64,000 nt of DNA, from NCBI GenBank assembly GCA_951406725.2, contig OX597840.1, forward strand, positions 26,226,001 to 26,290,000, read 5' to 3'. The stretch's first letter is position 1, and the number at the start of each line of letters is the position of its first letter. Shown here piece by piece: positions 1-61,463 of the stretch. The notes below the pieces were generated by a model. It saw only the letters and a list, made by a program, of their open reading frames with translations. It had not been told where the DNA came from and did no database searches. Source of the stretch: Octopus vulgaris. Lineage: Eukaryota. A program made the position numbers and the translations under genes.

Positions 1-227
1 TCTTATTTTACAGCGATAAGGTTCAGCTGAGACACATCTATACCAAAGGGATGCCAGATACACCAATTATCGGTTACCACATAAGAGAATAAAGTAGATA
101 TATATTATTTACGTCTGGGTCTTGTTGTTTCTGACTGGTAGAGAATCTGGATTATTAAAGCAACGGAAAGTGATTGCTTCTCGCACCCCCAAAAGGTCCA
201 GAGAAGATATTCACACTAAGATCGTTA

Positions 228-1500
228 CAACTTCTTTAACTTCCTAAGACATCTCAAAAGCTTCTAAAGCAAACTTCGTTTGTTTGTTTACGTTCATCGT
301 AATTTGAATTTAAATATATATGTATTACGAAGAGAGAAAAGGATAACTTAGGTAATTAATTGAAAACAACATAAAAAAAACAGAGTACAATTCATATATA
401 ATGCCTTAAATCCCAACAACGGACCATTGAATGTGTTTATGTGAAAAAAGATATCGAAAAACATTAGCACGTAAGAGTGAGAAAGAAACTCGGAAGGTAT
501 CAGGTGGTCGTGGGGTGCGCGATAAATAACAGCTAAATTGCTCTTCAATCGGTTTTTTCCCTTCTTTGTTGGTTTCATAACCGTTTCAATCCTTGCATGT
601 ACAGCAGAAATACGCAGAAATTTTCTGAAAATTCCCCCAAAATAAAAATGTGATAAGCGGTTACATTGGGTGCTTAAAGAAAGATTCCTTTGAAAAATAG
701 ATATTAATTGTAAGTTGTAATGAAGGAGAAGAACCTTCGGAAATAGAGACTTCCTAGGTTTTAAATAAAATCCGTTCCATTTCTTCTGTATACAATATTT
801 ACTTTTCGTTTCAGTATTTCAAGTGCACACTCGTATTTTTATACATTCCGCATGTCTTAGAAATTACATCGTAATTTTCCCGCGGAATTACATGTGAGGA
901 AGAAAGAGAAAAGTTATCTACACAAGGTATCCATCGGACGTTAACAAATAATATAGGAAATAAGGAAAGATGCAATGAAATATCTGAATGTAAAGGAGAA
1001 CACAACGGAAGTATTGAAAGAACAGCCTCACCGAAGTTGAAAAAGTGGGTTTCCATCGCAAAAAAATTAGGGAAAGGTAGGTGCGGTCCATGCCCTTTAC
1101 CTCCGCTATTTCGTCTTTGTTTAGTGAGATTCTTTCTTGTAACTTACTCAACACATCGAAACAAACAGACGTACGTAATATGATACATATACAATAGAAA
1201 TATACTTACATAGTAATATATATTCAGAGAGAGTCAACGATGAAAATATGAGAATATGTTGAATCAGGGAAAAGTTAGAGTGGACAGTGACAGCTTCAAG
1301 AGAATTTTTACGACGAATATTCATATTTAACAGGTCAACATAATATAAAAAAATGCTGCATCTGTTTCTTTAGACACTTAATTACCAATTACGTGTCTAT
1401 TTAATTAGATTTTCTCTTCAATATCAGTTGTAAAGTGGAACTGAGCAAGCAATACACATGCATACGGAGCAACAAAATTAGGAAGAATTAACTCTGAACA
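228..1500 (-). other. Promoter, non-coding exon 1 and start of intron 1 of a zinc-finger unit whose ORF lies left of the window
   Basis: 1077-1500 matches 61026-61450 and 228-363 matches 60740-60870 (upstream region of U7); GTAAGTA donor on - strand at 1209. Confidence 0.65.
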
Positions 1501-1514
1501 AACGTCTTGTCTTT

Positions 1515-2460
1515 GTAAGAAATGGGGAATGTATAAAAATACGAGTGTGCACTCGAAATACCGAAACGAAAAGCAAATATCGTAACGAGAGGAAATGGAA
1601 CGGCTTTTATTTGAGAGATAGGAAGTCTTTATTTCTGGTGGTTCTTCTGCATCATTAAAATTTAGAATTAGTATGTTTTTCTAATTTATTTAATTTTTGT
1701 GTGTGTGGAGTGCTGCTTTAAGCACCTAATATAATCCCTCGTCACATATTTTTATTTTGGGGAATTTTCAGAAATTTTTGCGTACGAGAATTTGAAATTA
1801 TCCATTATTGAATCAAAAGAACATTGACAGAGGAAGGAAAACATATCACTGTGATGTTAAACCTGAATCATTCTTTCAAAATGGTGAATTAATTATACAC
1901 AATCCTATTAATATGAAAGATATAACTGTAACCTAAGCTATTCGTGCTAAATCAATCTACGAAAATGATCAATTATTGAAATGTAAATGCATTGATACAG
2001 AAGAGGAACCACGATGATGATGATCCTCATCATTTAAAATTCTCCTATTCTTGCTTCTGTGGATCAGATGGAATTCATTGATGGAGATTTTCTACATCTG
2101 GGTCCCTTTCTTGTGACCAATCTTCACCTGTTTCCAAGCAAGGAAATATTTTCCATAAAATATGGTGAGACATATTTTATGCAGAAGGCTAGAAGTGAAC
2201 AACTGCACAAGTATGACGGTCATGATGGCCCTTTACGAACATCACATAATATCTAGGCAAAGGAACACGCACAGATACATGTGTATGTCTGAAGAATTTC
2301 TTATAGGAAATATCTTAAATGTTTTCTCTACGTGTAAATGTTTGTGATTCCTATTAGGAAATGAAACACATGTAATGCTGAATAAATAATATCAAACTCT
2401 TCTCTATTGTCCTTATGTGATTTGTAATTACTCTGCAAAAAATATTATCCAAACCTCCCA
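1515..2460 (+). pseudogene. Zinc-finger unit remnant with the coding region deleted (intron-1 piece fused to 3' UTR)
   Basis: 1515-1790 matches intron-1 sequence (cf. 14012-14160; reverse complement of 28495-28780); from ~1792 it matches the U1 3' UTR (11843 onward); AATAAA at 2381. Confidence 0.7.
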
Positions 2461-2920: not shown

Positions 2921-2990
2921 GGCGGTGCCCCAGCATGGCCACAGCTTGTGAGCTGAAACTAAATAAAATAAAAATAAATAAAATATAAAG
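2921..2990 (+). mobile_element. SINE 3' tail fragment
   Basis: GGCGGTGCCCCAGCATGGCC...CTGAAAC followed by (TAAAA)n; related copies at 13328-13370 and 20117-20165. Confidence 0.55.
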
Positions 2991-3224
2991 TAGAGCCGAA
3001 ATTATTTAAAGACGAGAGTTAGTTCCCCTTGATCTTTCATCTGCGTTTTGAGAAATTTGCTGCCTTTTGTCGAGAGAGTTCGATTTTTTGCTTATCGTTG
3101 TTTGTGTTAATTGTTAATTGAACGGTGCCCGTTGTGTAACGGTAGTTTTCGCCCTGCGGGGCGGAAGGTTCTGTGTTTAAAATTGTTGTTACCTTCGGGG
3201 TGGGTTTTGAAACATTTTTGAGAA

Positions 3225-4639
3225 ATGGATTTCGACTTGGCGTCGAGGAGTGATTTTCCCGCGATGGGAACAGGTGAATTGGGGGACACTGAGGTGACAA
3301 AGCGGTCTTTTTCGGCCGCGGTGGGCGGAGCCATGATGGACGTTGAATTCGGGATCGAGCAACTGTTCGAATTTGGGAACTTGGTGAAGGTGGAAGGAGG
3401 CGAAATCAGGCGAGGGTACAAGAGGTGAAGGAGAAAGCAGTTGTATACAGGGTGTATAGCTGCAGGGAGGGGAAGATTATGGACGTCGGAAGCGAAATGG
3501 TCGAGAAGTGCTTGTCCCCGGTGTGGGACGGGGTTCGCCGTGTCGTTCGAGGTGCTCGCGGCGCTGCTGTTGAAGCACATTTTGACTCGGCTGAGGTGGA
3601 AGGGGGGTGTCATCATTGACCCTGAAAGTGATGATATCATGCTGCTGCCCTCGTATATGGGAGGAGGAGCGGCTGAACTGCTGGTGGAGGACATGCCGAG
3701 AGGGTGTGATATGGTGTGGGTGGCAGCGGCGGTCCTGCACAGTGTGGAGCGGGAGGTTTCGGTTCTGCAGATGAGAGGGAGGGAGGAGGTGCGCTGGAGG
3801 GGACGGACGCTGGAGCTCCTCGTTCAGGCGGAGAACAAGATATTGGAGAGCCTGCCCGATGGGATATTTGACGAGGATGGAGCGTCCATGGGAGTGTCAG
3901 TGGAGGGGCGCAGACCTAGATGTTTTAGATGTGGCGAGAGGGGTCGCGTCCGCTCGAGCTGCTTAAAAAAAAGAAAACCAACGAAGCCCCTCCTCAAAGT
4001 GCTTCAAACACTGAAGGGGAGAAGGCGGAAAAAGATAACAAGACGACGACAAGCAAAGAAACAGAAACGGATTGTATCGAACAAATGGATTACACACAGG
4101 TGACACACAAAAGAAAAAAAGACAACACCCTGGACTCCCCTCCCCAAACAAGGAAAAAATCAGCAAGCACCGCAGACATACACACAAAGCAAATTCCCCA
4201 GCCCTACCCCCATGGCACTGTATTCATTGGGAAACAGTTCGCCAAGCCCCTCCCCATAAAACAAGATGTGAAAAAGTCTTTAAATAAAAATGATAAGATC
4301 ATTGCTTTTGATGAAAAAAACGAAAGGGTATATAAATACTATAAATTTTCAAAATTTAAACTATTTAGCAAGGCTACAGACATAAAAGCAACCACTCGCT
4401 TCGCAAAAATAAAGGAAGACGAGTGGAAGGAGGAAATACTACAAGAACATCTAAAGAATAGACTGATAAGAGACGTAACAAAAGAAGTACTGGAGGGTAA
4501 ACTTGTTATAACCCCGGCAACCACACCTACCCAGAGCCCGGTGGCAACGCCGGTTAAGAGCCCTGCAGCTACGACCACAAGGGAGGAAGAAGGGGAAGCG
4601 GGCAGATTTAAACTGTCATGCTCCCTTTCTCAACCGTAA
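3225..4639 (+). pseudogene. Tx1 ORF1 (gag-like, degenerate knuckle CFRCGERGRVRSSC), about three frameshifts
   Basis: Overlapping ORF pieces 3225-3428, 3425-3619, 3441-4103, 3929-4639; YRVY, LLPSY and VEGRRPRC motifs are shared with the ORF1-only element. Confidence 0.8.
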
Positions 4640-4666
4640 GTTCATTTATTTTTTCTCTCACCGACA

Positions 4667-7600
4667 ATGGCTAAGCTGGGTTGTGTGAATGTACGTGGAA
4701 TGGGGACGAAATGGAAACAAATTTGTTTCCTGAACGACCTCACGACACATTGAGTAGACATAGCTATTGCAACCGAGTCCAAGATGAACGAGGCCCAAGC
4801 GTTCTCGCCTCTTCTAAATGGGTTCGAGAAATTTATTTCTCCTAGCCGAGGAAGAGGCAGAGGCGTGGCAGTCCTTATCAGGAAGAGCTTGGACTTGCAG
4901 GTAAGTACTGTCTTTCTGGACCCAGAAGGCAGGCTGGTTGTTCTGGATGTGACCCACGTAAGTAAACAGTCCTTCAGGTTGGTAGCTGTCTACGCTCCGA
5001 ACGAGGGTAGACAGACGGGTTTTTTCGGAACCTGGAGCCCTTTTTAGCGACGTCGAAAACGGTAATCCTAGTAGGGGACTTTAACACTGTCCTTGAAGCG
5101 CGGGTCGACAGTGTTGGCTCAACCAATAGGAAGGGGAACCCTAGCCTCAAGGGTCTACTAGAGAGCTTTGATCTAGTGGACCGTTACCGACTGGATGAGC
5201 CGAGCGTTCCACAGTGGACGTGGAGTAACAACGACGGCTCACACAGATCGTATTTAGATAGGATATTTATTAAGAAAAGAGATAAGGATACGTTTAGTTG
5301 TCCACAGTTTCACATTGTGCCTTACACGGATCACAAATTTGTGACGTGTAGGATGCAATTAGACAAGTGTCATAGACAGGGACCCGGGTACTGGAAGCTG
5401 AACAAGGCTATTTTGAATTGTGAAGACTTCCGTACCCGGATTAAGGTGTTAGTACAGAGGGCATTGTGTGGCACCATCATTAACAATAGATGGTGGCACT
5501 CCCTCAAAAGAGCCATTCGTTCAGAGTCCATTAGATTTAGCAATCAGCTAAGGTTAGATAGGTCTAGGATAGAGGACGATTTAGTTAAGAATCTAAACGA
5601 GGCAATGGAAGCTGGCTCTGCATCCGGAGTGATGGCGGCAAGGACGGTATTGTACCGTCACCTTAACTCCAAACACGAAGGTTGCAGAGTCAGAGCTAAG
5701 CTACGCGCTGGGAAACGAGAAGGTATTAACGTTGCCGGATGGGCCCGTCGAGTGGAGAGTCAGAGAGGTAACAAAGCCTCAATCAAGTCTTTAACTGACG
5801 AACAGGGACAAAAGATCTATGGACAGGAGGAGATGCAAAAGTTTCTTCACCAGCATTTCGCCCGCGTGTTCGGGGGTGGTGTGGCGCCGGAGCGGGGAGG
5901 ACCTTAAAGGACTTCCTGGCCGGCGGACCGCGGCTCTCGGGGCGTGAGGTGGAGTGCTGTGAAGAAGCGATCACTCCCGCGGAGATAGAGGGGATACTGG
6001 CCGGATGCGCCGGGGAGAAGTCGCCGGGGTTGGATGGTCTGCCCTACGAGTTTTACCAAAGTATGCCGGACTTGTTCGGGGGAATATTGGCAGGCGTCTA
6101 CACGAACTGGCAGCAGAATGGGAGAATTCCCAGTTCTGTAAGCCGGGGAGTGGTGACGCTAATCCAGAAAGACCCGAGCAAGGGGGATAACATTAGTAAC
6201 TACAGGCCCATAACTCTACTTAATGTAGAGTTAAAGATTTTGGCCAAGGTGTTGGCAAAAAGGTTGACGGTTGTCGTGGAGAAACTTGTAGGGAGAGCAC
6301 AGACATGTGCAATTCCAGGCAGGTCGATCCAGGACAATCTTCACCTTATACGCTACACCTTAGATAGGGTGGGTAAATTAACCGGCAAGGGCGGGGTAAT
6401 GGTCCATTTAGACCAAAGTAAAGCGTTCGATAGGGTAGACCATGAGTACCTGGCGACGGTCCTCGAAGCGGCTGGACTGGGCCCTGAATTTCGCGGGTGG
6501 ATCTCCGCTATGTATAGCGGCATCAAGTCCACCGTCCAGATAAACGGTTACCTAACGGAACCGTTTTCGATCGAATGTTCAGTTCGTCAAGGGTGCCCCT
6601 TGTCACCACTTTTGTACGTGTTGGCTCTTGAGCCATTGCTGCGAAAGTTGGAGAGGCTGGGAAGTAACTCGGATGAGATCGGAGGTGGGAGGACGGTTAC
6701 TGCTTATGCGGATGACGTCACCCTCATCGTGTCCAATGAGGCCCAGCTACCTTGTGTGGAAGAGGCTATCAGAGGATACGAGGCGGTGGCAGGAGCAAAG
6801 GTTAACAAGGACAAGTCGGTTGGCTTGCGCCTCGGCACCTGGAGGAACAAGTCGATATCGTCCAGTGTCGTGGGACACTGGACGGATGGCCCTGTTAAGT
6901 TGCTAGGAGTTTGGTTTGGGCCAGACTCCCAAACGGAGAGGAACTGGAGTGAGGTGACGAGCAAGGTGGAGGCCATAGTACGGACCTGGTCCGGAAGGTT
7001 TCTGTCCTTGAAAGGAAGGGTGGAGGTGGTACAGATGTTCATTGCATCTGTAATCACTTACCGCCTGACCGTTGTCCCTTGCCCCGATTCATGGCTTAGC
7101 AAGTTGGAGCGAATCCTTTTCCGCTTTTTGTGGAAGGGAGGAAAGCCACTTGTGAGGCGCTCCGTTTGCTGCCAGGAACCGTTAAAGGGTGGGTTAGGAA
7201 TGCCTTGGTTGATGATGCGCAGACATGTGTTGAGGCTGAAGCATCTCTGGCACCACCTGGAGGGTGATAAGGTGTGGAGTCCGCTGGCAGGGGAATTTTT
7301 CCCGAGACCGGCCTCCTTAGTGAATTTTAAACCCGGTCGCATCAAAAGATGGAAACTGACTTTATGGCAAAAGGAGTGCCGACAGGCACTCACGCTGATC
7401 CACAAGGCGGGCAAGGCCGGCTGCGGAAATACCACCTCGGTATTTTATAGAAGGCTGGTAGAGGCAAAGAACGACGACGTCCTAGGAGGGGCTCTGGGGT
7501 TTGACGAGGACCAGCTTACCAACCTGTTTAAAAAGACTTTCAGGACGGGGTACTTGGATAATTTCCAAAGATCCCTCGCCTGGCAGTGCTATAGGAATGC

Positions 7601-8054
7601 TTTACCTGTTCGCGAGAAGTTATCGCGGCACGGAATTTCAGTGCCACCGACGTGTCCAAGGTGCGAGTTGGACGATGAAACCGTCCAGCACGCTTTTGTA
7701 CACTGTCGGAAGTTGTCCGACTTGATAAGTTACGCAGAACACGTGTTATCGCATCTGGGACGAGTACAGCTGTCGGCTGAGTCTATGATTAAGATGATAC
7801 CGCCAACTGGACTCTCGAAGGAAGGTGAGGCATGTTTTCACTGCACAGTTGCAGTAGTAAAAGAATGCATGTGGCGAACAAGAATGGAAGGAGTCGCGAT
7901 AGGATCCTTTGTCTCGGGCCCCGGCTTGCTCACTTACTTCAGATATCATCTGAAGAGCAAAATGGGGCTGGAAAAGAGGATCTTACCACGGGGTGTGTAT
8001 GAGAAAAGATGGAAGGAAGTGGAAAAAAAGGTGGGTGTCAGAAACCCAGCTTAA
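4667..8054 (+). pseudogene. Tx1 ORF2: APE endonuclease, reverse transcriptase, C-terminal CCHC finger
   Basis: MAKLGCVNVRG, VAVYAP, LVGDFN, SYLDRIF, YTDH (APE); KSPGLDG, NYRPITLLN, KAFDRV, QGCPLSP, YADD (RT); CPRC..ETVQHAFVHC; TGA at 4751, frameshifts near 5025 and 5900. Confidence 0.92.
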
Positions 8055-8312
8055 CTATGGAGGGAGGAGAGGAAACAAAAGCTGCGGGGCCTTATAAATT
8101 GCCGGGGTTTAAAACTTCGGTAAAGATCGAAAGTTTATGAAATGTTATAATATTCTATTGGTCATGTAAAGGACAATTTACAGACGAATTTTTATAATGA
8201 ATAATCCAAATGTTATGGAAAATTTTTAATCGAACCTCTTAACTGTTTTTTGCATGTATGTCCTGTATGTGTCCTTTTATGTAACGATTGTATAATCGGA
8301 ATAAAGAAATAA

Positions 8313-8606
8313 AGAGTTAGTTCCCCTTGTCAAATCTCTTCCTAATTAATTGTATTTCTTGCTCTTGTTTCTCACGCACCTTGATTGTTTGATCAGTTCC
8401 ACTTTACGACTGATATTTAAGAGAAAACCCAATCAAATATATACAAATGATTGGTAATTAACTGTCTAAACAAACAGATACAGCATTTTTTATTACATTG
8501 ACCTGCGAAATATGAAGTAACGTTCGTTGTGAGAAAGGAAGAAATTCTCTTGAAGCTGTCAGAGTCCGCTCTGACTCGTTGACTCTCTCTTTATATCAAT
8601 TACTAT
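8313..8606 (+). promoter_or_regulatory. U1 putative promoter and non-coding exon 1
   Basis: GAGTTAGTTCCC motif; CCAAT 8429-8433 and ATTGG 8450-8454; GTAAGTA donor at 8607; block conserved in all units. Confidence 0.6.
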
Positions 8607-10015: not shown

Positions 10016-10444
10016 AAAATCACATGAAATTGGCTAAAAAGTATTTTTTACTTTTAAAGAATCATCAATGTTTCATGTTTTAAAGACTCTGCAAAGATAT
10101 TCTACAAACGTATAATCCTGCTCCTATAAAACATTGCCGAGTTACAGTAAAATATTTCCTCTGAGAGAGAGAAAGCATTTCTTTACTTCTGTGTCTGAAA
10201 TGTGCAGAAGATAATTTTCTCTTTTAAATATACTTTGATAGATTTCCAAAGAGTATTTGCAACATTTTTAAATATTGGCATTGATCACATTTAGAAGAAA
10301 TATAAGAGAAGTGATATTTGTTTGGAATAAACTATAAAAACAAAAAGAAGAAAAATATCCATAAATTTTGGTGAGAGGAGAATTAGTATTGAAAAGTTGT
10401 TGATCTGTACAACTTGAAAGATCGATTTTATTTTTCTTGAAGAG

Positions 10445-11656
10445 ATGTCGGAAGAATTAAGAAAATCATCATATGACTGTGACATCTGCAAAGAGTCATT
10501 CTTAGAAGAAAGTAAATTCAATCAACACAAACAAATTCATACAGGGGAACAACCATATCACTGTGATATCTGTGGTAAATCATTTTCTGATGGCAGTAGC
10601 TTACCCAACCATAAACGTATTCATACGGGGAAGAAACCATATCACTGTGATATCTGTGGTAAATCATTCTCTCGTGCTCATAGCTTAGCTATTCACAAAC
10701 GTATTCATACAGGAGACAAACCATATCACTGTGATATTTGTGGTAAATCATTTTCTAGTAGCAGTAACTTAATTAAACACAAATGTGTTCATACAGGGGA
10801 AAAACCATATCACTGTGATATCTGTGGTAAATCATTTTCTAGTAGCAGTAACTTAACTCGACACAAACGTATTCATACAGGGGAGAAACCATATCACTGT
10901 GATATCTGTGGTAAATCATTTTCTGATGGCAGTAGCTTACCCAACCACAAGCGTATTCATACAGGGGAGAAACCATATAGCTGTAGCATCTGTGGTACAT
11001 CATTCTCACATCACAGTCACTTAATTCGACATACAAGTATTCATACAGGGGAGAAACCATATCACTGTGATATCTGTGGTAAATCATTCTCTGATGGCAG
11101 TAGCTTAACCAAACACAAGCGTATTCATACAGGGGAGAAACCATATAGCTGTAGCATCTGTGGTACATCATTCTCACATCACAGTCACTTAATTCGACAT
11201 ACACGTATTCATACGGGGGAGAAACCATATCACTGTGATATCTGTGGTAAATCATTTTCTGATGGCAGTAGCTTACCCAACCACAAACGTATTCATACAG
11301 GGGAGAAACCATATAGCTGTAGCATCTGTGGTACATCATTCTCACATCACAGTCACTTAATTCGACATACACGTATTCATACAGGGGAGAAACCATATCA
11401 CTGCGATATTTGTGGTAAATCATTCTCACGTTCTCATAGCTTAGATATTCACAAGCATATCCATACAGGAGAAAGAAACTACCACTGTGATATCTGTGGT
11501 CAATCATTTTCTACTAGCAGTAACTTAACTCGACACAAACGTATTCATACAGGTGAGAAACCATATCATTGTGATATCTGTGGCAAATCTTTCTCTGAAA
11601 GCAGCAGCTTAACTAAACACAAGCATATTCATACAGGTGAGGAACCGTATCACTGA
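10445..11656 (+). CDS. C2H2 zinc-finger protein U1, 403 aa, 14 fingers
   Basis: CxxC-12-HxxxH repeats with TGEKPY linkers; AATAAA at 12420. Confidence 0.95.
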
Positions 11657-13396: not shown

Positions 13397-13412
13397 AGAG
13401 TTAGTTCCCCTT
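13397..13412 (+). promoter_or_regulatory. U2 upstream motif, empty retroelement target site
   Basis: AGAGTTAGTTCCCCTT at the homologous position, with no Tx1 tail upstream. Confidence 0.75.
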
Positions 13413-20861: not shown

Positions 20862-21705
20862 CATCATCATCATCATCATTTCATTTAACGTCCGCTCTCC
20901 ATGCTAGCATGGGTTGGACGGTTCAACAGGGGGTCTGGGGAGCCCGAAGGCTGCACCAGGCCAGTCAGATCTGGCAGTGTTTCTACAGCTGGATGCCCTT
21001 CCTAATGCCAACCACTCCGAGAGTGTAGTGGGTTATTTTATGTGCCACCGACACAGGTGCCAGACGAGGCTGGCGAACGGCCACGCTCGGATAGTGTTTT
21101 TTATGTGCCACCGACACAGGTGCCAGACGGCCACGCTCGGATGGTGTTTTTATGTGCCACCGACACAGGTGCCAGATGAGGCTGGCGAACGGCCACGATC
21201 GGATGGTGTTTGTTACGTGCCCACAGCATGGAGGCCAGTCGATGCGGTACTGGCTACAGCCACGTTCGTATGGTTTTCTTCTTAGGTTCAACTTTTCTCT
21301 CAAGGTACTTACACTCTGTCGATTATGAACACTGACATTACACATCCATCGGAGCATACTGGATTCATTTCTTGCGAGCTTACGCATATCCTCAGCAGTC
21401 ACGGCCCATGTTTCACTACCATGTAGCATGGCTGTACGTACACATGCATCATACAGTCTGCCTTTTACTCTGAGCGAGAGGCCTTTTGTCACCAGCAGGG
21501 GTAAGAGCTCTCTAAACTTTGCCCAGGCTATTCTTACTCTAGCAGTTACACTTTCAGCACACCCACCCCCGCTACTGACTTGGTCTCCTAGGTAGCGGAA
21601 GCTATCAACTACTTCTAGTTTTTCTCCCTGGAACGTGGTAGAAGTTGGTCTCTGCACATTTCCAGTGTTTATTGCTCCTGAGCATCTGCCACAGACAAAA
21701 ACTAT
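20862..21705 (-). mobile_element. 5'-truncated, internally deleted RTE LINE with (ATG)n tail
   Basis: 21283-21705 closely matches 26770-27190; 20862-21270 matches the 3' UTR and tail of the element at 25412. Confidence 0.88.
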
Positions 21706-25411: not shown

Positions 25412-28087
25412 AGGGCTATTAGACAAAAGAAACAGGCTTGGAAGGACTGGAAGAACGGTGGTAGCAGGGAAGTGTATCAGACTGCCAGAAGGGAAGCTAG
25501 GAGGCAGGTGTATTTAGCCAGAGAGGAAGCAGATAAGAAAAAATTTGCCAATGTTCTGCGCCGTGAGGATGAAAGACTTGAGGTATTTCGTGTTGCATGA
25601 GTGTGTGAGAGAGAATCGTGACATGGCAGGAGAGAAATGTGTTTGCAATGATGACGGTTCACTTGCGCTAAATGAAGATGCAAAGAGAGAGGTTTGGAGA
25701 CGCCAGTATGAAAGGATGCCGAATGAGGAAAATGAATGGGATAAAGAGAGTCTGCCGAATGTCGACCCAACAGAGGGACCAGCAATCCGAGTTGACAGTT
25801 CCTTAGTAGTTAAGGCAATTACAAGCATGAAAACAGGAAAAGCCCCAGGCCCATCAGGAATTACTGCAGAGATACTCAAAATATCTGGTAGTGTCGGCTA
25901 TAGCCTAGTCACCCGTATAGTTAACCGGGTGATACACAAAGGAGTCATACCCAATGACTGGTGTAGCAGCATAATAGTCAACTGCAACAAAGGTAAAGGT
26001 GATGCCCAGGATACAAATAACTACAGGGGTATCAAGCTGCTGGATCAGGTAATGAAGGTTACGGAGAGGGTTATAGCCCAACTAATTAGAGAGAGAGTTA
26101 GCTTAGATGATATGCAGTTTGGGTTCGTGCCAGGGAAAAGTACTACTGATGCTATATTCCTGGTAAGACAGCTGCAGGAGAAATACCTAGCCAAAGATAA
26201 GCCCCTGTACCTGGCTTTTGTTGACATGGAGAAAGCCTTCGACAGGGTCCCCCGATCCCTTATCTGGTGGTCAATGAGGAAACTAGGGATAGATGAATGG
26301 TTAGTGAGAGCTGTGCGAGCCATGTACAGAGACGCTGCTAGTAAGGTGAGGGTTGGCAACGAGTACAGTGAAGAATTCCGGGTAAAGGTTGGGGTCCACC
26401 AAGGTTCAGTCCTCAGTCCCCTCCTATTTATCATAGTCCTCCAGGCAATAACGGAGGAATTCAAGACAGGATGCCCCTGGGAGCTCCTCTATGCTGATGA
26501 CCTTGCTCTAATTGCTGAGTCACTATCAGAACTGGAGGAGAAGTTTCAGGTGTGGAAGCAAGGTTTAGAATCGAAGGGCCTTAGAATCAACCTAGCCAAA
26601 ACCAAAGTCCTAATAAGTAGGAAGATAAACCAATCACAAACGCCTTCAGGTAGATGGCCCTGCTCGATCTGTAAAAAAGGTGTAGGTAGAAACTCCATAA
26701 GGTGCACCAAGTGTAAGCTATGGACACATAAGAGGTGCACCAATGTCAAAGGAAGGCTAACTAGGAAAATAGTTTTTGTCTGTGGCAGATGCTCAGGAGC
26801 AATAAACACTGAAAATGTGCAGAGACCAACGTCTACCATGTTCCAGGGAGAAAAACTAGAAGTAGTTGATAGCTTCCGCTACCTAGGTGACCAAGTCAGT
26901 AGCGGGGGTGGGTGTGCTGAAAGTGTAACTGGTAGAGTAAAAATAGCCTGGGCGAAGTTTAGAGAGCTCTTACCCCTGCTGGTGACAAAAGGCCTCTCGC
27001 TCAGAGTAAAAGGCAGACTGTATGATGCATGTGTACGTACAGCCATGCTACATGGTAGTGAAACATGGCTGTGACTGCTGAGGATATGCGTAAGCTCGCT
27101 AGAAATGAAGCCAGTATGCTCCGATGGATGTGTAATGTCAGTGTTCATAATCGACAGAGTGTAAGTACCTTGAGAGAAAAGTTGGACCTAAGAAGCATCA
27201 GTTGTGGTGTGCAAGAGAGACGTTTGAGCTGGTATGGTCATGTGACGAGAATGGCTGAAGATAGTTGTGTGCAAAAGTGCCACACCCTAGCAGTTGAGGG
27301 AACCTGTGGAAGAGATAGACCCAGGAAAACCTGGGACGAGGTGGTGAAGCACGACCTTCGAACTTTAGGCCTCACCAAGGAAATGACTAGAGACCGAGAC
27401 CTATGGAAGTATGCTGTGCGTGAGAAGACCCGGCAAGACTAGTGAGACCATAACCCGTGGCCTCTACCTGGTATGTAGCCAGTCGACTTATACATACCTC
27501 TCCTTCTTGGGACACAAAACTCCGCTTGTGAAGACCCGTTGTGGCAAGTGAAAATCAAAAAATCAAAATCAAAACAAATCAAATATCAGAAAGCAGATCC
27601 AAAATCGAAGTCGATCAACATCAATGAAAATTGCGGCTGTGATACCAGTGCCGGTGACAAGTAAGCGAACCATCTGATCGTGGCCGTTGCCAGCGCCGCC
27701 CCGACTGGCCTCCGTGCCGGTGGCACATAAAAGCACCATCCGTTCATGGCCATTGCCAGCCACGACTGACCCCCGTGCCGGTGGCACGTAAAAGCTCCAT
27801 CCGTTTGTGGCCGTTGCCAGTCTCGCCTGGCCCCCGTGCCAGTGGCACGTAAAAAAAAGACATCCGTCCGTGACCGTTTTCCAGCTCCGTCTGGCACCTG
27901 TGCGGGTGGCACGTAAAAAGCACCCACTACACTCACGGAGTGGTTGGCGTTTGGAAGGGCATCCAGCCGTAGAAACACTGCCAGATCAGACTGGGCCTGA
28001 TGCAGCCTTCTGGCTTCCCAGACCCCAGTTGAACCGTCCAACCCATGCTAGCATGGAAAGCGGACGCTAAATGATGATGATGATGAT
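25412..28087 (+). mobile_element. 5'-truncated RTE-clade LINE, antisense within the U3 intron
   Basis: KAPGPSG, NYRGIKLL, KAFDRV, HQGSVLSP, YADD, HGSETW, RPRKTW; frameshifts at ~25597 and ~27068; 3' UTR with ~55-60-bp tandem repeats (27650-27930); (ATG)n tail. Confidence 0.93.
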
Positions 28088-29389: not shown

Positions 29390-29406
29390 CAACGGGAACT
29401 AACTCC
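29390..29406 (-). promoter_or_regulatory. U3 upstream motif, empty target site
   Basis: GGAGTTAGTTCCCGTTG followed by TTCATCGGCAAA, the same site type that is occupied in U6. Confidence 0.75.
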
Positions 29407-30821: not shown

Positions 30822-31700
30822 TTAACGGTATCGAACCGGTGGCAGGATGTTCTTTCTACATCTGGTGGATCTTGTGCTTCGCACCGGTGTCTGAGGTGTG
30901 TTGTTGGGCTGCTGATGGGTGGTTGGTGCCCAATGGGATGATGATTCTGTGGGTGTTGTCACTGATGCAGCAGGTGTTGTACTCGTTGTCTGCTGATGGG
31001 TGGTTGTTACATTTATAATGTGGTGGACCTTTATGCTTTGTCCTTCCATCTCCTGTTTATCATGTGAGGATAGTCTGGAAAGAACATCCGCCAATATCAG
31101 GTCTTTTCCTGGCTTGTACCTGATATCATAGTCGTATGTTTGAAGCCTTAACAGTAATCTTTGCAGTCTGGCTGGTGCTTTCGTCAGGTTTTTCCTATGT
31201 ATTTGTTCTAGCGGGCGATGGTCTGTTTCAGTATTGAAATGTCTTCCATACAGGTATGTATGGAACTTTTCACATCCATATACTACTGCCAGGAGTTCCC
31301 TTTCAAATTTTGAGTACCTCGTCTCTGTGGGTGAGAGAGCTTTCGAGGCATATGCAATGGGCTTACCTTCCTGTATCAGTGCTGCACCAACTCCTCTCAT
31401 AGAAGCATCAACTTGGAGTGTTACTGGTTTGCGTCTGTCATAGTATTGCAGAGTTGTCTCCTTACTGATGAGCTTTTTGATTGCTTTGAAATCCTGTGTG
31501 TGTGAAGCACACCAATCAAACTCTACGTCATCTTTGTTTAGTTCTCGGAGATTTGCAGTGTGATCGGCCAGCTTGGGTATGAAGGCTCCCATGTAGTGAA
31601 TGAGTCCCAGGAAGCTCCTGAGTTCCACCTCGTCTTTAGGTTCTTTAATGTCTCTGATTGCTTCCACTTTAGCGGGGTCTGGTTTAACTCCCTCTGCAGA
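30822..31700 (-). pseudogene. Gypsy pol fragment (RT thumb and RNase H)
   Basis: LRSFLGL, VDAS..GVGAAL, AYASKAL, ERELLAVV, TDHRPL, ADVLSR. Confidence 0.9.
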
Positions 31701-37989: not shown

Positions 37990-38970
37990 GGTTTTATATG
38001 GAGAAAAATACTGAAAAACGTCAGCACATCAGAGTGACAAAGAAACTAGGGAGGTATCAGGTGGTCGTGAGATGTGCGAAAAATAACAGCTAAATAGCTC
38101 TTAAAGCACACAGTTTTTGCTTGTTTGTTGAATTCTCGTGTGTAGAATATTTGCAAAAATTTTCTGAAAATTCCGGAAAAAACAAAACAAACCCCAGATA
38201 TTAATTGTAAGTTGTAATGATGCAGAAGAACCGCCAGAAATAAAGACTTCCTATGTCTCAAATAAAAGCCATTTCCTCTCGATACGATATTTGCTTTTCG
38301 TTTCAGTATTTCAAGTGCACACTCGTATTTTTATACATTCCCCATTTCTTACTAATTACATCGTAATTTTCCCGCTTTTAACGAAATCGTCGAATTTACA
38401 CGTTAGAAAGAAAGATAAATGTTATCTAAACAAGGGATTGATCCGACGTTTTTACAAATAATTTAGAAAATAACCAAAAGTGCAATGAAATGTCTAAAAG
38501 AAAACGACAACACAATGAAAGTATTAAAATTACAGCCTTTCGTATAATTTCGTCTTAGTGAGATTTTTTTTCTTTTAACTTTCTCAACACATCGAAACAA
38601 ATAAATGTACATAATAGGACACATATATAATAGAAATGTTTAAATAAATACTTACATAGTAATAGATATGGAGAGAAAGAGTGAAGGGGGGAGACGTGAG
38701 AACTGGAGTCAGAGTGGACAAGGACAGCTTCAAGAGAATTTCTAGATTTCTACAACAAACGTTAATTAATAATTTTCAGGTCCACATAATCGTAAATGCT
38801 GTATCTGTTTGTTTAGACAGTTAATTACCAATCATTTGTATATATTTGATTGGGTTTTCCTCTTAAATATCAGTCGTAAAGTGGAACTGATCAAACAATC
38901 AAGGTGCGTGAGAAACAAGAGCAAGAAATACAATTAATTAGGAAGAGATTTGACAAGGGGAACTAACTCT

Positions 38971-40277
38971 TTATTTCTTTATTATGATTATACAATCGTT
39001 ACATAAAAGGACAAATACAGGACATACATGCAAAAAACAGTTAAGAGGTTCGATTAAAAATTTTCCATAACATTTGGATTATTCATTATAAAAATTCGTC
39101 TATAAATTGTCCTTTACATGACCAATAGAATATTATAACATTACATAAACTTTCGATCTTACCGAAGTTTTAAACCCCGGCAATTTATAAGGCCCCGCAG
39201 CTTTTGTTTCCTCTCCTCCCTCCATAGTTAAGCTGGGTTTCTGACACCCACCTTTTTTTCCACTTCCTTCCATCTTTTCTCATACACACCCCGTGGTAAG
39301 ATCCTCTTTTCCAGCCCCATTTTGCTCTTCAGATGATATCTGAAGTAAGTGAGCAAGCCGGGGCCCGAGACAAAGGATCCTATCGCGACTCCTTCCATTC
39401 TTGTTCGCCACATGCATTCTTTTACTACTGCAACCGTGCAGTGAAAACATGCCTCACCTTCCTTCGAGAGTCCAGTTGGCGGTATCATCTTAATCATAGA
39501 CTCAGCCGACAGCTGTACTCGTCCCAGATGCGATAACACGTGTTCTGCGTAACTTATCAAGTCGGACAACTTTCGACAGTGTACAAAAGCGTGCTGGACG
39601 GTTTCATCGTCCAACTCGCACCTTGGACACGTCGGTGGCACTGAAATTCCGTGCCGCGATAACTTCTCGCGAACAGGTAAAGCATTCCTATAGCACTGCC
39701 AGGCCAGGGATCTTTGGAAATTATCCAAATACCCCGTCCTGAAAGTCTTTTTAAACAGGTTGGTAAGCTGGTCCTCGTCAAACCCCAGAGCCCCTCCTAG
39801 GACGTCGTCGTTCTTTGCCTCTACCAGCCTTCTATAAAATACCGAGGTGGTATTTCCGCAGCCGGCCTTGTGGTGAATCAGCGTGAGTGCCTGTCGGCAC
39901 TCCTTTTGCCATAAAGTCAGTTTCCATCTTTTGATGCGACCGGGTTTAAAATTCACTAAGGAGGCCGGTCTCGGGAAAAATTCCCCTGCCAGCGGACTCC
40001 ACACCTTATCACCCTCCAGGTGGTGCCAGAGATGCTTCAGCCTCAACGCATGTCTGCGCATCATCAACCAAGGCATTCCTAACCCACCCTTTAACGGTTC
40101 CTGGCAGCAAACGGAGCGCCTCACAAGTGGCTTTCCTCCCTTCCACAAAAAGCGGAAAAGGATTCGCTCCAACTTGCTAAGCCATGAATCGGGGCAAGGG
40201 ACAACGGTCAGGCGCTAAGTGATTACAGATGCAATGAACATCTGTACCACCTCCACCCTTCCTTTCAAGGACAGAAA
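38971..40277 (-). mobile_element. 5'-truncated Tx1 copy at the U4 motif
   Basis: Near-identical to 7001-8312; 3' junction AAAGAGTTAGTTCCCCTTG (38954-38970) same as U1; ORF fragment 39228-40172. Confidence 0.95.
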
Positions 40278-44996: not shown

Positions 44997-45985
44997 GGTT
45001 TTATATGGAGAAAAATACTGAAAAACGTCAGCACATCAGAGTGACAAAGAAACTAGGGAGGTATCAGGTGGTCGTGAGATGTGCGAAAAATAACAGCTAA
45101 ATAGCTCTTAAAGCACACAGTTTTTGCTTGTTTGTTGAATTCTCGTGTGTAGAATATTTGCAAAAATTTTCTGAAAATTCCGGAAAAAACAAAACAAACC
45201 CCAGATATTAATTGTAAGTTGTAATGATGCAGAAGAACCGCCAGAAATAAAGACTTCCTATGTCTCAAATAAAAGCCATTTCCTCTCGATACGATATTTG
45301 CTTTTCGTTTCAGTATTTCAAGTGCACACTCGTATTTTTATACATTCCCCATTTCTTACTAATTACATCGTAATTTTCCCGCATTTAACGAAATCGTCGA
45401 ATTTACACGTTAAAAAGAAAGATAAATGTTATCTAAACAAGGGATTGATCCGACGTTTTTACAAATAATTTAGAAAATAACCAAAAGTGCAATGAAATGT
45501 CTAAAAGAAAACGACAACACAATGAAAGTATTAAAATTACAGCCTTTCGTATAATTTCGTCTTAGTGAGATTTTTTTTCTTTTAACTTTCTCAACACATG
45601 GAAAGAAATAAACGTACATAATACGACACATATATAATAGAAATGTTTAAATAAATACTTACATAGTAATAGATATGGAGAGAAAGAGTGAAGGAGGAAG
45701 ATGTGAGAACTGGAGTCAGAGTGGACAAGGACAGCTTCAAGAGAATTTCTAGATTTCTACAACAAACATTAATTAATATTTTTCAGGTCCACATAATCGT
45801 AAATGCTGTATCTGTTTGTTTAGACAGTTAATTACCAATCATTTGTATATATTTGATTGGGTTTTCTCTTAAATATCAGTCGTAAAGTGGAACTGATCAA
45901 ACAATCAAGGTGCGTGAGAAACAGGAGCAAGAAATACAATTAATTAGGAAGAGTTTTTACAATTAACAACGGGAACTAACTCCAA

Positions 45986-47647
45986 TTTTTTTATTACCCA
46001 CCAGGGGCGGCGAAGAGGGGACATTACAAAACATTGGGGACATAGAACATTATAATTAAATTTATGAACAATGAATTATTAAATGAAAAAATGATAATAT
46101 GAAAGCGACGCTCTCGGCCCCATCCGCCAGCATCCCTTACCTGTCCTTTATCACCCATTTCCAATTACAATTCCTAGTTTTTCTATCACACTCTTCGTTT
46201 TCCTTTCATACATCTCTATCATTTCACCCTGCATCGGCACGGTCATCCATTTTATACCCTCTTCCTCACACCTCCTCGCCAATGTCTCCATAAATTCATA
46301 TTCCAAAACCGCGTAACTACCATCTTCATGTTCGCGCCATAAGTCTTTATGTACCATCCTTTCCGAGTTCTGGGTGTCCCTCCTCCTCGCAACACATAAA
46401 AAATAGGTCCTGGGACTTTGTTCGTTCTGTGTGTCTGCATTTGTTTTTGTTGTAGGCGGGGGTGGGGGGTGGAATCGCTGTTTGCAGGGGAGGGATGGGA
46501 CTCAGAGTGTACGGGTGGTGTTGGAGTTTCGTACAGTTTTCTTTTTTTTTTTTCTCCCTTCTTCCCACTCTTGCTGGATCTCCTCCTCTTCAGTTGCTTC
46601 CCTTTCTGTTTGGTTCTCCTTTTCTTTAGTGTCTTCCTTCTTTTGGGGTTCCGAAACGATTTCCTTTTCCTTTGGTGGGGGAGGGCAGTAGGCTCTTATG
46701 TGACCCCTCAGGCCACACTTATAGCACCTGGGCGCCCTGCCCTCCACCCACACTCTCATAATAATGTTCCCCGTTCCTACAGTATCTGTCAGCCCTTCCA
46801 CTGCTTCCGCCTCCGTCTGTATATTCATGTCCAAGGTAGCACCTCTCACGCCTTCGTATTTCATCGTGACGCGGAGGATGTCTACCTTTTCCTCGTTTCC
46901 CTTAATCACCGCTGCCGTTATGTATTCACCCTCTGGGTGTGGAGGTATTCCCTCCACCCAAATTCTTGTGGTCCTTCTATTTAGATACGAGGGCAGTAAG
47001 TATATTTTCTCGGTCTTCACCACCTTGGCTGCTATTTTTTTGGCGACGTTCTCACTTCTATACTGCACCGTTACCGTTCCACACTCCATTCCTCCAGTCA
47101 GGTAAACAATTTCCTCTCCAGTCTGTTTCAATGCCTCTTCAATAACTTCCACATTGACTATTTCCATCTTTCTTCCTCCATTCACGTACACTCTATATTT
47201 TATGGTTCTACGGTTGAACCCCTCGCCCCGCCTTGCTGGAGGTGACAGCTCGATTTCGCCGTTCTCCTCCTTCATAAAATTCTGGAAGCCTGGTAGTTTA
47301 GCCAGGTCCACCTCTTTTTCTATCGACTTCCTCATTATTCCTGCGTAGGTACTTTCCAGCTTCCTGTCCACTTTTGCCACTGCTTCTTCCAACTCCTCTT
47401 CAGATGTTGACAATTCCGGTAAACTTTCAAATAAATTCTTCCCGGCCATCTCACCAGTTAGGGAGAGGCGGCTCATAATCTCCTCAGACCGAAAACGGCC
47501 GCCCAAACAGAAACAGTGCAACGCGCAGAACCAGTGCGACGCGAAACCGCATCAACCGAAGTTCAAAACTCCACAACAACAACACTTTTTTTTTCTTTTT
47601 CACCGAATTCTACGAGCCGAGAAAAACACAACCGACGTCAAACGTTA
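45986..47647 (-). mobile_element. ORF1-only (HAL1-like) non-autonomous retroelement, copy A
   Basis: Single gag-knuckle ORF, no APE/RT; bounded by GGAGTTAGCTCCC (47648-47660) and GGAGTTAGTTCCC (45971-45983). Confidence 0.8.
46502..47476 (-). CDS. L1/Tx1-type ORF1 protein with CCHC knuckle (copy A; C-terminus shifted at an A12 run)
   Basis: CYKCGLRGHIRAYC; colinear with Tx1 ORF1; first ATG at 47476. Confidence 0.75.
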   Translation of the reverse strand: MSRLSLTGEMAGKNLFESLPELSTSEEELEEAVAKVDRKLESTYAGIMRKSIEKEVDLAKLPGFQNFMKEENGEIELSPPARRGEGFNRRTIKYRVYVNGGRKMEIVNVEVIEEALKQTGEEIVYLTGGMECGTVTVQYRSENVAKKIAAKVVKTEKIYLLPSYLNRRTTRIWVEGIPPHPEGEYITAAVIKGNEEKVDILRVTMKYEGVRGATLDMNIQTEAEAVEGLTDTVGTGNIIMRVWVEGRAPRCYKCGLRGHIRAYCPPPPKEKEIVSEPQKKEDTKEKENQTEREATEEEEIQQEWEEGRKKKKKTVRNSNTTRTL

Positions 47648-47662
47648 GGGAGCTAACTCCAA

Positions 47663-48130
47663 TTTCTTTATTATGATTATACAATCGTTACATAGAAGGA
47701 CAAATACAGGACATACATGCAAAAAACAGTTAAGAGGTTCGATTAAAAATTTTCCATAACATTTGGATTATTCATTATAAAAATTCGTCTGTAAATTGTC
47801 CTTTACATGACCAATAGAATATTATAACATTACATAAACTTTCGATCTTACCGAAGTTTTAAACCCCGGCAATTTATAAGGCCCCGCAGCTTTTGTTTCC
47901 TCTCCTCCCTCCATAGTTAAGCTGGGTTTCTGACACCCACCTTTTTTTCCACTTCCTTCCATCTTTTCTCATACACACCCCGTGGTAAGATCCTCTTTTC
48001 CAGCCCCATTTTGCTCTTCAGATGATATCTGAAGTAAGTGAGCAAGCCGGGGCCCGAGACAAAGGATCCTATTGCGACTCCTTCCATTCTTGTACGCCAC
48101 ATGCATTCTTTTACTACTGCAACCGTGCAG
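47663..48130 (-). mobile_element. Short 3' Tx1 fragment
   Basis: Matches 7841-8310; ends TAATAAAGAAAT then TGGAGTTAGCTCCC. Confidence 0.93.
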
Positions 48131-53373: not shown

Positions 53374-54363
53374 GGTTTTATATGGAGAAAAATACTGAAA
53401 AACGTCAGCACATCTGAGTGACAAAGAAACTAGGGAGGTATCAGGTGGTCGTGAGATGTGCGAAAAATAACAGCTAAATAGCTCTTAAAGCACACAGTTT
53501 TTGCTTGTTTGTTGAATTCTCGTGTGTAGAATATTTGCAAAAATTTTCTGAAAATTCCGGAAAAAACAAAACAAACCCCACATATTAATTGTAAGTTGTA
53601 ATGATGCAGAAGAACCGCCAGAAATAAAGACTTCCTATGTCTCAAATAAAAGCCATTTCCTCTCGATACGATATTTGCTTTTCGTTTCAGTATTTCAAGT
53701 GCACTCTCGTATTTTTATACATTCCCCATTTCTTACTAATTACATCGTAATTTTCCCGCATTTAACGAAATCGTCGAATTTACACGTTAAAAAGAAAGAT
53801 AAATGTTATCTAAACAAGGGATTGATCCGACGTTTTTACAAATAATTTAGAAAATAACCAAAAGTGCAATGAAATGTCTAAAAGAAAACGACAACACAAT
53901 GAAAGTATTAAAATTACAGCCTTTCGTATAATTTCGTCTTAGTGAGATTTGTTTTCCTTTTAACTTTCTCAACACATGGAAACAAATAAATGTACATAAT
54001 ACGACACATATATAATAGAAATGTTTAAATAAATACTTACATAGTAATAGATATGGAGAGAAAGAGTGAAGGAGGAAGACGTGAGAACTGGAGTCAGAGT
54101 GGACAACGACAGCTTCAAGAGAATTTCTAGATTTCTACAACAAACGTTAATTAATATTTTTCACGTCCACATAATCGTAAATGCTGTATCTGTTTGTTTA
54201 GACAGTTAATTACCAATCATTTGTATATATTTGATTGGGTTTTCTCTTAAATATCAGTTGTCAAGTGGAACTGATCAAACAATCAAGGTGCGTGAGAAAC
54301 AGGAGCAAGAAATACAATTAATTAGGAAGAGTTTTGCCGATGAACGACGGGAACTAACTCCGA

Positions 54364-56029
54364 TTTCTTTATTACCCACCAGGGGCGGCGAAGAGGGGAC
54401 ATTACAAAACATTGGGGACATAGAACATTATAATTAAATTTATGAACAATGAATTATTAAATGAAAAAATGATAATATGAAAGCGACGCTAACGGCCCCA
54501 TCCGCCAGCATCACTTACCTGTCCTTTATCGCCCATTTCCAATTACAATTCCTAGTTTTTCTATCACACTCTTCGTTTTCCTTTCATACATCTCTATCAT
54601 TTCACCCTGCATCGGCACTGTCATCCATTTTATACCCTCTTCCTCACACCTCCTCACCAATGTCTCCATAAATTCATATTCCAAAACCGCGTAACTACCA
54701 TCTTCATGTTCGCGCCATAAGTTTTTATGTACCATCCTTTCCGAGTTCTGGGTGTCCCTCCTCCTCGCAACACATAAAAAATAGGTCCTGGGACTTTGTT
54801 CGTTCTGTGTGTCTGCATTTGTTTTTGTTTTTCTTGTAGGCGAGGAGTGGGTGGAATCGCTGTTTGCAGGGGAGGGATGGGACTCAGAGGGTACGGGTGG
54901 TGTTGGGGTTTCGTACAGTTTTCTTTTTTTTTTCTCCCTTCTTCCCACTCTTGCTGGATCTCCTCCTCTTCAGTTGCTTCCCTTTCTGTTTGGTTCTCCT
55001 TTTCTTTAGTGTCTTCCTTCTTTTGGGGTTCCGTAACGATTTCCTTTTCCTTTGGTGGGGGAGGGCAGTAGGCTCTTATGTGACCCCTCAGGCCACACTT
55101 ATAGCACCTGGGCGCCCTGCCCTCCACCCACACTCTCATAATAATGTTCCCCGTTCCTACAGTATCTGTCAGCCCTTCCACTGCTTCCGCCTCCGTCTGT
55201 ATATTCATGTCCAAGGTAGCACCTCTCACGCCTTCGTATTTCATCGTGGCGTGGAGGATGTCCACCTTTTCCTCGTTTCCCTTAATCACCGCTGCCGTTA
55301 TGTATTCACCCTCTAGGTGTGGAGGTATTCCCTCCACCCCAATTCTTGTGGTCCTTCTATTTAGATACGAGGGCAGTAAGTATATTTTCTCGGTCTTCAC
55401 CACCTTGGCTGCTATTTTTTTGGCGACGTTCTCACTTCTATACTGCACCGCAACAGTTCCATACTCCATTCCTCCAGTCAGGTAAACAATTTCCTCTCCA
55501 GTCTGTTTCAATGCCTCTTCAATAACTTCCACATTGACTATTTCCATCCTTCTTCCCCCATTCACGCACACTCCATATTTTATGGTTCCACGATTCAACC
55601 ACTGGCCCCGCCTTGCCGGAGGTGACAGCTCGACCTCGCCGTTCTCCTCCTCCTTCATAAAATTCTGGAAGCCTGGTAGTTTAGCCAGGTCCACCTCTTT
55701 TTCTATCGACTTCCTCATTATTCCTGCGTAGGTACTTTCCAGCTTCCTGTCCACTTTTGCCACTGCTTCTTCCAACTCCTCTTCAGATGTTGACAATTCC
55801 GGCAAACTTTCAAATAAATTCCTCCCGGCCATCTCACCAGTTAGGGAGAGGCGGCTCATAATCTCCTCAGACCGAAAACGGCCGCCCAAACAGAAACAGT
55901 GCAACGCGCAGAACCAGTGCGACGCGAAACCGCATCAACTGAAATTCAAAACTCCACAACAACAACACTTTTTTTTCTTTTTCACCGAATTCTACGAGCC
56001 GAGAAAAACACAACCGACGTCAAACGTTA
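54364..56029 (-). mobile_element. ORF1-only (HAL1-like) non-autonomous retroelement, copy B
   Basis: Homologous end to end with copy A; bounded by motif copies at 56030-56042 and 54349-54361. Confidence 0.8.
54526..55859 (-). CDS. L1/Tx1-type ORF1 protein with CCHC knuckle (copy B; as assembled it stops at 54654, and one extra A in the A10 run gives 444 aa ending at 54526)
   Basis: CYKCGLRGHIRAYC; ORF track 54654-55904 and 54526-54948. Confidence 0.7.
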
Positions 56030-56044
56030 GGGAGCTAACTCCAA

Positions 56045-56511
56045 TTTCTTTATTATGATTATACAATCGTTACATAGAAGGACAAATACAGGACATACAT
56101 GCAAAAACAGTGAAGAGGTTCGATTAAAAATTTTCCATAACATTTGGATTATTCATTATAAAAATTCGTCTGTAAATTGTCCTTTACGTGACCAATAGAA
56201 TATTATAACATTACATAAACTTTCGATCTTACCGAACTTTTAAACCCCAGCAATTTATAAGGCCCCGCAGCTTTTGTTTCCTCTCCTCCCTCCATAGTTA
56301 AGCTGGGTTTCTGACACCCACCTTTTTTTCCACTTCCTTCCATCTTTTCTCATACACACCCCGTGGTAAGATCCTCTTTTCCAACCCCATTTTGCTCTTC
56401 AGATGATATCTGAAGTAAGTGAGCAAGCCGGGGCCCGAGACAAAGGATCCTATTGCGACTCCTTCCATTCTTGTACGCCACATGCATTCTCTTACTACTG
56501 CAACCGTGCAG
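56045..56511 (-). mobile_element. Short 3' Tx1 fragment (duplicate of 47663-48130)
   Basis: Same 5' breakpoint and 3' junction. Confidence 0.93.
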
Positions 56512-61446: not shown

Positions 61447-61463
61447 CAAGGGGAACTAAGTCT
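61447..61463 (-). promoter_or_regulatory. U7 upstream motif variant, empty site
   Basis: AGACTTAGTTCCCCTTG, one mismatch from the Tx1 TSD, at the homologous position. Confidence 0.7.

Follow-up and report, generated by a model that had tools for sequence, protein, structure and literature searches.

Target choice among long interspersed elements (LINEs) of the Tx1 clade includes, in the cited passages of PMC4494074, transposons, U2, U5 and 5S genes, satellites and microsatellites. Examples given there are Keno in U2 small nuclear RNA (snRNA) genes, Kibi and Koshi in microsatellites, Tx1-Mar in Mariner-N4 and Tx1-9_AMi in Harbinger (PMC4494074). Here a Tx1-like LINE of Octopus vulgaris, family A, is described from a window of 64,000 nucleotides (the whole stretch analysed; contig OX597840.1, C27) and from loci elsewhere in the 2.8-Gb genome (L numbers). 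The window carries 7-8 tandem C2H2 zinc-finger (ZNF) units (U1 to U7), and an original prediction had read a GAGTTAG(T/C)TCCC motif in their promoters as the target of the element.

Transcription from flanking sequence has been proposed for SINEU and R2, the latter being co-transcribed from the promoter of its target (passages of PMC4494074), and R1Bm requires downstream target sequence in its RNA (passages of PMC7265360). Position-specific integration is carried out by Ty3, DGLT-A and TRE5/TRE3 at tRNA genes and by Tf1 at RNA polymerase II (Pol II) promoters (passages of PMC6101501). As far as these excerpts go, family A is like Tx1L and other target-preferring Tx1 LINEs in its second open reading frame (ORF2) with APE endonuclease, reverse transcriptase (RT) and zinc finger, in its CCHC-bearing ORF1, in its target-site duplications (TSDs), in tandem stacking at the target and in having transposons among its targets. 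Unlike them, family A has, as one family, several unrelated precise targets, one of which is the leader of host protein-coding genes, and the feature common to its targets is a position behind a TATA-like box. R1Bm, SART1Bm and R2 each have, in the same excerpts, one fixed target set by the endonuclease, whereas the targets of family A vary among near-identical endonucleases; in the reading favoured below, family A would resemble all three in an RNA whose downstream, target-derived part pairs with the target, and R2 in being transcribed from the target's promoter. A fixed distance from a promoter element in otherwise unrelated sequence is shared with Ty3, DGLT-A, TRE5, TRE3 and Tf1 as presented there, and family A would work like Ty3 if the positional nicking proposed below holds; Ty3, DGLT-A and Tf1 are long terminal repeat (LTR) elements and TRE5 is a LINE at RNA polymerase III genes, whereas family A is a LINE. 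The passages of PMC6101501 describe no LINE at TATA+30 of Pol II units, and a literature search, with Repbase/Dfam and most subscription papers outside it, brought up no LINE described at TATA+30 and none in the promoters of ZNF genes.

Repeated insertion of family A at a zinc-finger leader

The motif lies 293-321 nt upstream of the GT donor of exon 1 in 7/7 units, close to the ~290-320 bp first reported, and it is empty in U2, U3 and U7 as had been stated, the U7 motif being a variant with one change. Four family A 3' ends touch it in the orientation of the ZNF gene, that of the complete element in U1 and those of pieces in U4-U6 that are 96-98% identical to it. The adjacency and orientation in the original prediction were right; the U5 and U6 ends (47662 and 56044) had been placed 1 nt off, and in these two units the motif copy touching family A (47659 and 56041) is ~2 kb from the donor, because a 1.66-kb element of another family, family B, separates one copy of the motif from a second.

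Comparison of the copies with their flanks showed that family A entered the ZNF motif repeatedly and independently, at least six times. Among 10 ZNF-site copies the last 1.2 kb is 98.6-99.8% identical in all 45 pairs, whereas the 400-bp downstream flanks are only 81-86% identical in many pairs, and the upstream flanks fall into three unrelated promoter types. Since element identity is far above flank identity, and since the U1 haplotype also occurs without the element (L190, L204), a single insertion amplified by duplication, one of the outcomes that would have undone the original prediction, is ruled out as sole cause. The TSD-supported events are U1/L079; L076 or L069; the L049/L050 type; the L070-L072 type; a tandem insertion, L073; and a truncated copy, L081. 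Up to 13 junction types were recognised at ZNF sites. At least two insertions had been foreseen, with the remaining copies possibly segmental; both expectations were borne out, the duplicates being U1/L079, U4/L078, U5/U6 and L050-L052.

With an exon-1 pattern, 33 ZNF leaders were listed in the genome, 12 with the element and 21 empty. The pattern is limited to the C27 clusters and one C22 site, so the leader is no dispersed repeat. The motif was counted 256 times in the genome versus 146 for its control, and the 3' end joined to the motif gave 14 genome matches versus 0 for a reversed control; the adjacency therefore exceeds chance. Open ZNF frames fail to separate occupied units from empty ones.

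With a TATA-like box 31 bp upstream and a spliced donor downstream, the site resembles an element of a Pol II promoter, in keeping with what had been proposed. This label and the TATAWAWR scans below use the TATA consensus. Three RNA-like runs, each from a different study, have contigs that join the U2 donor at 13707 to ~15391, and this joint was not listed for a DNA-like run. Such Logan contigs do not reveal where transcription starts, and no run recorded as RNA was listed as containing the stretch. The motif returns in an AAGAG/CCCTG context in diverged loci (L118-L124, on C7 and C1), two of which, L119 and L120 on C7, adjoin ZNF repeats; in this context it is possibly a conserved core-promoter element.

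Family A is Tx1-like on ORF2 scores (252 bits against Xenopus Tx1L ORF2 and 179 bits against human L1 ORF2), a placement by score. The pieces in the window yielded the Pfam domains PF03372, PF00078 and PF13966, as did the ORF2 of L062, which is intact at 1129 aa. An intact ORF1 of 477 aa occurs in L047, where zf-CCHC scores 21.2 bits (cut-off 20.8); a CCHC knuckle in ORF1 is a feature of the Tx1 clade. The window copy (Table 1) is full-length in extent, as had been claimed, and its perfect 17-bp TSD was confirmed; its coding frames are broken by an in-frame stop at 4751-4753 and by frame changes near 3960, 5017-5044 and 5895. The left flank of the U4 copy belongs to another promoter type. Its truncation point, element base 3968 (window 40277), is common to L064 on C18 at an unrelated site, and one of the two sites has its own 18-bp TSD; the shared end would be explained by a hot spot of truncation or by a master copy that was itself truncated.

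Table 1. Positions, within the window, of family A, family B and the ZNF features discussed.
Feature	Position	Strand	Remarks
TATA-like box, U1 ZNF promoter	2984..2990	+	31 bp upstream of TSD
Left TSD	3015..3031	+	17 bp, motif included; transcription predicted to start in this region
Full-length Tx1-like LINE, family A, U1	3032..8312	+	without poly(A) tail
ORF1 (CCHC knuckle)	3225..4639	+	frameshifted in window copy
ORF2 (APE endonuclease, RT, zf-RVT)	4667..8054	+	broken in window copy
AATAAA	8300..8305	+	7 nt before element end; putative cleavage inside right TSD
Right TSD	8313..8329	+	perfect match to left 17-bp copy
Predicted non-coding exon 1, U1	8330..8606	+	donor GT at 8607; U2 homologue spliced
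C2H2 ZNF coding frame, U1	10418..11656	+	412 aa, stop to stop
Empty motif, U2	13398..13409	+	donor 13707
Empty motif, U3	29394..29405	-	no TATA-like box at -31
Motif touching U4 family A copy	38958..38969	-	donor 38655
Family A copy, 5'-truncated, U4	38971..40277	-	no left TSD; duplicate of L078
Family B, 1.66-kb ORF1-only Tx1-like, U5	45985..47646	-	between motifs 47648-47659 and 45971-45982
Family A 3' piece, U5	47662..48130	-	
Family B, U6	54363..56028	-	between motifs 56030-56041 and 54349-54360
Family A 3' piece, U6	56044..56511	-	U6 = segmental duplicate of U5
Empty variant motif, U7	61450..61461	-	one change; donor 61157

Target range and position behind a TATA-like box

A search pattern biased to the window lineage yielded 42 exact 3' ends, 17 at the motif, 3 elsewhere in ZNF promoters and 22 at other sites. 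The 5' pattern gave 55 matches; after removal of five non-element ones (L087, L097, L106 and two in L107), 50 true 5' ends remained, 12 in ZNF promoters and 16 in a hammerhead-like repeat. The ZNF motif is consequently a target, as had been proposed, and not the sole one, and the heterogeneous flanks that were named as a sign against the proposal do occur in part (22/42 3' ends, 16/50 5' ends). In both the motif (17/42 3' ends) and the hammerhead-like repeat (16/50 5' ends) the share exceeds the 20% of flanks used as a rule in PMC4494074.

The hammerhead-like repeat is ~340 bp long and TA-flanked, with hammerhead-like core words and a stem pattern in RNAfold, and Rfam gave no match at the gathering score in 7 scanned loci. 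The label is based on the core words and the stem pattern. Its TSD pairs co-vary (8 mismatches versus 28 when shuffled, 0/20000, 13 loci), and this joint variation speaks for separate insertions in it. Other targets are ~500-bp 5' monomers of RTE-type LINEs, single sites, and, at L053, L091 and L096, a further tandem unit. This unit contains hammerhead-like words, its ends are inverted, and we take it to be Penelope-like at L053/L091; an earlier assignment of the L053/L091 target to a Gypsy LTR was dropped on finding these features. Inspection of family A flanks revealed no U2 snRNA, tRNA spacer or microsatellite. An RTE-type LINE at L206 (C5:94286000-94295999) and L177-L179 has up to 13 tandem ~520-bp 5' monomers, each with a perfect TATA box.

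In family A trees, target classes largely track sub-lineages, with mosaics. Endonuclease DNA is 92-100% identical among 19 compared representatives, and between the ZNF copies and L047, L054, L080 and L086, which have unrelated targets, it is 98-99% identical, 1-3 residues apart. One target per family, set by the endonuclease, is not the pattern found, within a comparison that mosaics limit.

The position of the targets relative to a TATA-like box was then scored with TATAWAWR, allowing at most one mismatch, at starts -36..-26 relative to the TSD; the scoring excluded TSD-unresolvable loci (L056, L059, L063, L080, L074, L075, L078, L093, L108) as well as most of the tandem arrays of family B. 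The box was found in 12/21 target classes against a background of 10.4%, and in 8/15 against 9.2% when related classes were merged (p=1.8e-5), with starts peaking at -34..-29. Permutation of the scan maximum, the sole correction for a window picked after the sites had been seen, gave p=0.0028, the runner-up window reaching 4/15. A fixed distance to a promoter element, of the Ty3/TRE5-A type, was thus found in 8/15 classes (p=0.0028). Single non-repeated sites had the box in 4/11 (p=0.019), and family B with its relatives, fetched later, in 3/6 resolved sites, all at -29/-30 (p=0.016). L077, whose head comes from another sub-lineage, lies 31 bp behind a TATAAA and away from the usual motif; this TATAAA is missing from the same promoter type in U7. 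The target class is wider than the ZNF motif and comprises predicted start sites of several kinds of unit; the original prediction is thus supported in part. Our verdict is that the ZNF leader is one true target within a broader, probable start-site habit of a young, target-preferring family.

Full-length copies bear short 5' heads common to unrelated loci; that of L056 comprises 17 nt taken from an RTE monomer, from TATA+29 onwards, and that of L060 has its first base at TATA+32..34 in the target of L091. If such heads are natural 5' ends, their donors would start at the distance expected of a TATA promoter. At the other end, AATAAA stands 5-7 nt before the 3' boundary, and 0/60 junctions open with a run of six or more A. 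Close relatives have the first 5-7 target bases in common: at single sites, nearest relatives, in partly reciprocal pairs, share 4.4 flank bases versus 1.9 when shuffled (p=5e-5), and 9/16 sites share at least five with the nearest relative.

Family B, an ORF1-only family absent from the original prediction and with 703 candidates in an initial look, was examined at L127-L174. It uses the ZNF motif plus many other sites, and its flanks are lineage-bound; (TG)n tracts occur among them, as do tandem arrays and a short interspersed element (SINE). Family B is likely mobilised in trans. Three relatives (L167, L169, L170) lie ~250 bp from, and facing, what we assume to be a Mariner-like terminal repeat, a placement that resembles the crocodilian Tx1-Mar/SINEU arrangement. 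The 3' end of one more relative, L163 (C29:24228000-24237999), continues into degenerate C2H2 coding repeats that belong to a different cluster.

Proposed mechanism and its rivals

It is proposed, as the probable explanation, that family A inserts at Pol II start sites, is transcribed from the captured promoter, and carries target-derived RNA ends that bias its daughters to the same promoter family. Repeated, independent, sense-oriented insertion with TSDs of 8-24 bp and no poly(A) is the observed step, and the TATA-like box ~30 bp upstream across unrelated target classes is a statistical one. The insertion base would coincide with the transcription start, so that a full-length copy would be transcribed from the host promoter into an RNA opening with the left TSD; this is suggested because captured daughter heads begin 29-34 bp behind the donor TATA. 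Element RNA would not end at the AATAAA but extend into the right TSD; its target-derived 3' bases could anneal to nicked DNA and prime reverse transcription. From such annealing would follow a heritable 5-7-base preference in each sub-lineage, and the return of the ZNF sub-lineage to ZNF promoters. In the weakest step, the nick may be set by position, through contact with the preinitiation complex or open start-site DNA, and not by sequence recognition of the endonuclease.

Several observations weigh against this proposal. No box is found in 7/15 merged classes, in 4/5 5'-truncated classes (only 1/5 has one), or in the motif-bearing ZNF promoters U3, L195, L202, L119 and L120. L065 lies within a Gypsy-type coding frame, L056 and L092 lie within other Tx1-like elements, and TATA is lacking at several family B copies, which occupy (TG)n tracts or a SINE. 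The start sites placed at the insertion base are predictions from sequence, and the TATA window was, as said, picked with the sites in view. Mosaic copies such as L086 weaken the endonuclease comparison. An all-pairs (Mantel) test of 3'-end identity against flank sharing gave nil (rho -0.14, p=0.92), next to a nearest-neighbour result drawn from partly reciprocal pairs. Finally, at L069-L072 and U4/L078 the promoter type to the left of the element differs from that to its right. The additional bases at the right junctions of L070-L072 had been considered as proof of RNA read-through, an idea dropped when empty alleles revealed recombinant flanks; at L069-L072 and U4/L078 such bases are unusable for that purpose because recombination can supply them.

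The strongest rival dispenses with start-site sensing: flank-derived RNA annealing alone would pick targets, and the TATA link would be a survival bias, since only copies landing at start sites get transcribed and their daughters return to homologous multicopy promoters. The strong lineage memory of the first flank bases fits this account, as do the insertions outside promoters that share merely 5-7 bases (L065, L056, L092, L063, L059), the presence of TATA mainly with full-length copies (11/16 versus 1/5) and the family B copies in (TG)n tracts. We consider it unlikely, in view of the terminal single-site copies, which are not necessarily masters and yet have the box at the rate given above (4/11, p=0.019), and of L077, which changed target with little homology, yet at TATA+31. 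Matches of 5-7 bases are also very frequent genome-wide and alone would not yield 12/33 occupied ZNF leaders.

Recognition of the ZNF promoter motif by the APE endonuclease, as Tx1L and Keno recognise theirs, with all other sites off-target, is improbable. The motif is touched by 17/42 exact 3' ends, the off-site copies L045, L063 and L059 share 7-11 bases with it, and, according to the passages of PMC4494074, target choice in the Tx1 clade is commonly credited to the endonuclease. Set against this, copies whose endonucleases are 1-3 residues apart insert precisely and repeatedly into sequences that are unrelated, 16/50 5' ends lie in one other repeat, and the motif, along with many other sites, also serves family B, which lacks ORF2. 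A single old insertion, multiplied as the ZNF cluster underwent segmental duplication and gene conversion, is hardly credible and is refuted as sole cause, for although some copies are duplicates (the four sets named above) and recombinant flanks indicate active conversion, the copies have three unrelated upstream promoter types, differing TSD lengths and 5' heads, a truncated member (L081) with its own TSD, tandem insertions, empty alleles and an element identity far above that of their flanks.

Beyond insertion at start sites with captured RNA ends, a fuller picture may be drawn, tentatively and with less confidence than in the proposal itself: a LINE that finds Pol II starts by position, hijacks the promoter, retargets via host bases captured at both RNA ends, and occupies about one third of the promoters of one ZNF family, swapping them by recombination. 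Family A may act as the recombination substrate in such swaps between ZNF genes. L199 is an empty chimera.

Neighbouring features and significance

Several further features were noticed around the ZNF units. At window 1028-1517 on the minus strand lies another ZNF leader, 96% identical to that of U7, with the motif deleted. Between the units, RTE-like RT fragments and a pol fragment of an LTR element were recognised by eye (20983-21705, 25518-27074, 30822-31706). In a cluster on C2 (L112:6738-6750), an ACTACA-like word stands in a CpG-rich stretch ~180 bp upstream of the ZNF motif and resembles the ZNF143/Ronin motif.

To our knowledge, the known sequence-specific LINEs avoid host genes and aim at RNA genes, microsatellites and other transposons. 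Family A sits in 12/33 listed C2H2 leaders, between promoter and exon 1, where it could silence, re-wire or shuffle genes. The occupied leaders matter for the debate over whether transposons and ZNF expansion are linked in cephalopods (PMC12988792, whose cited passages mention neither Tx1 nor promoters). Near-identical endonucleases with different precise targets are a natural experiment in target change among target-specific LINEs, and a swap of flanks offers a testable route to steering insertion by RNA.

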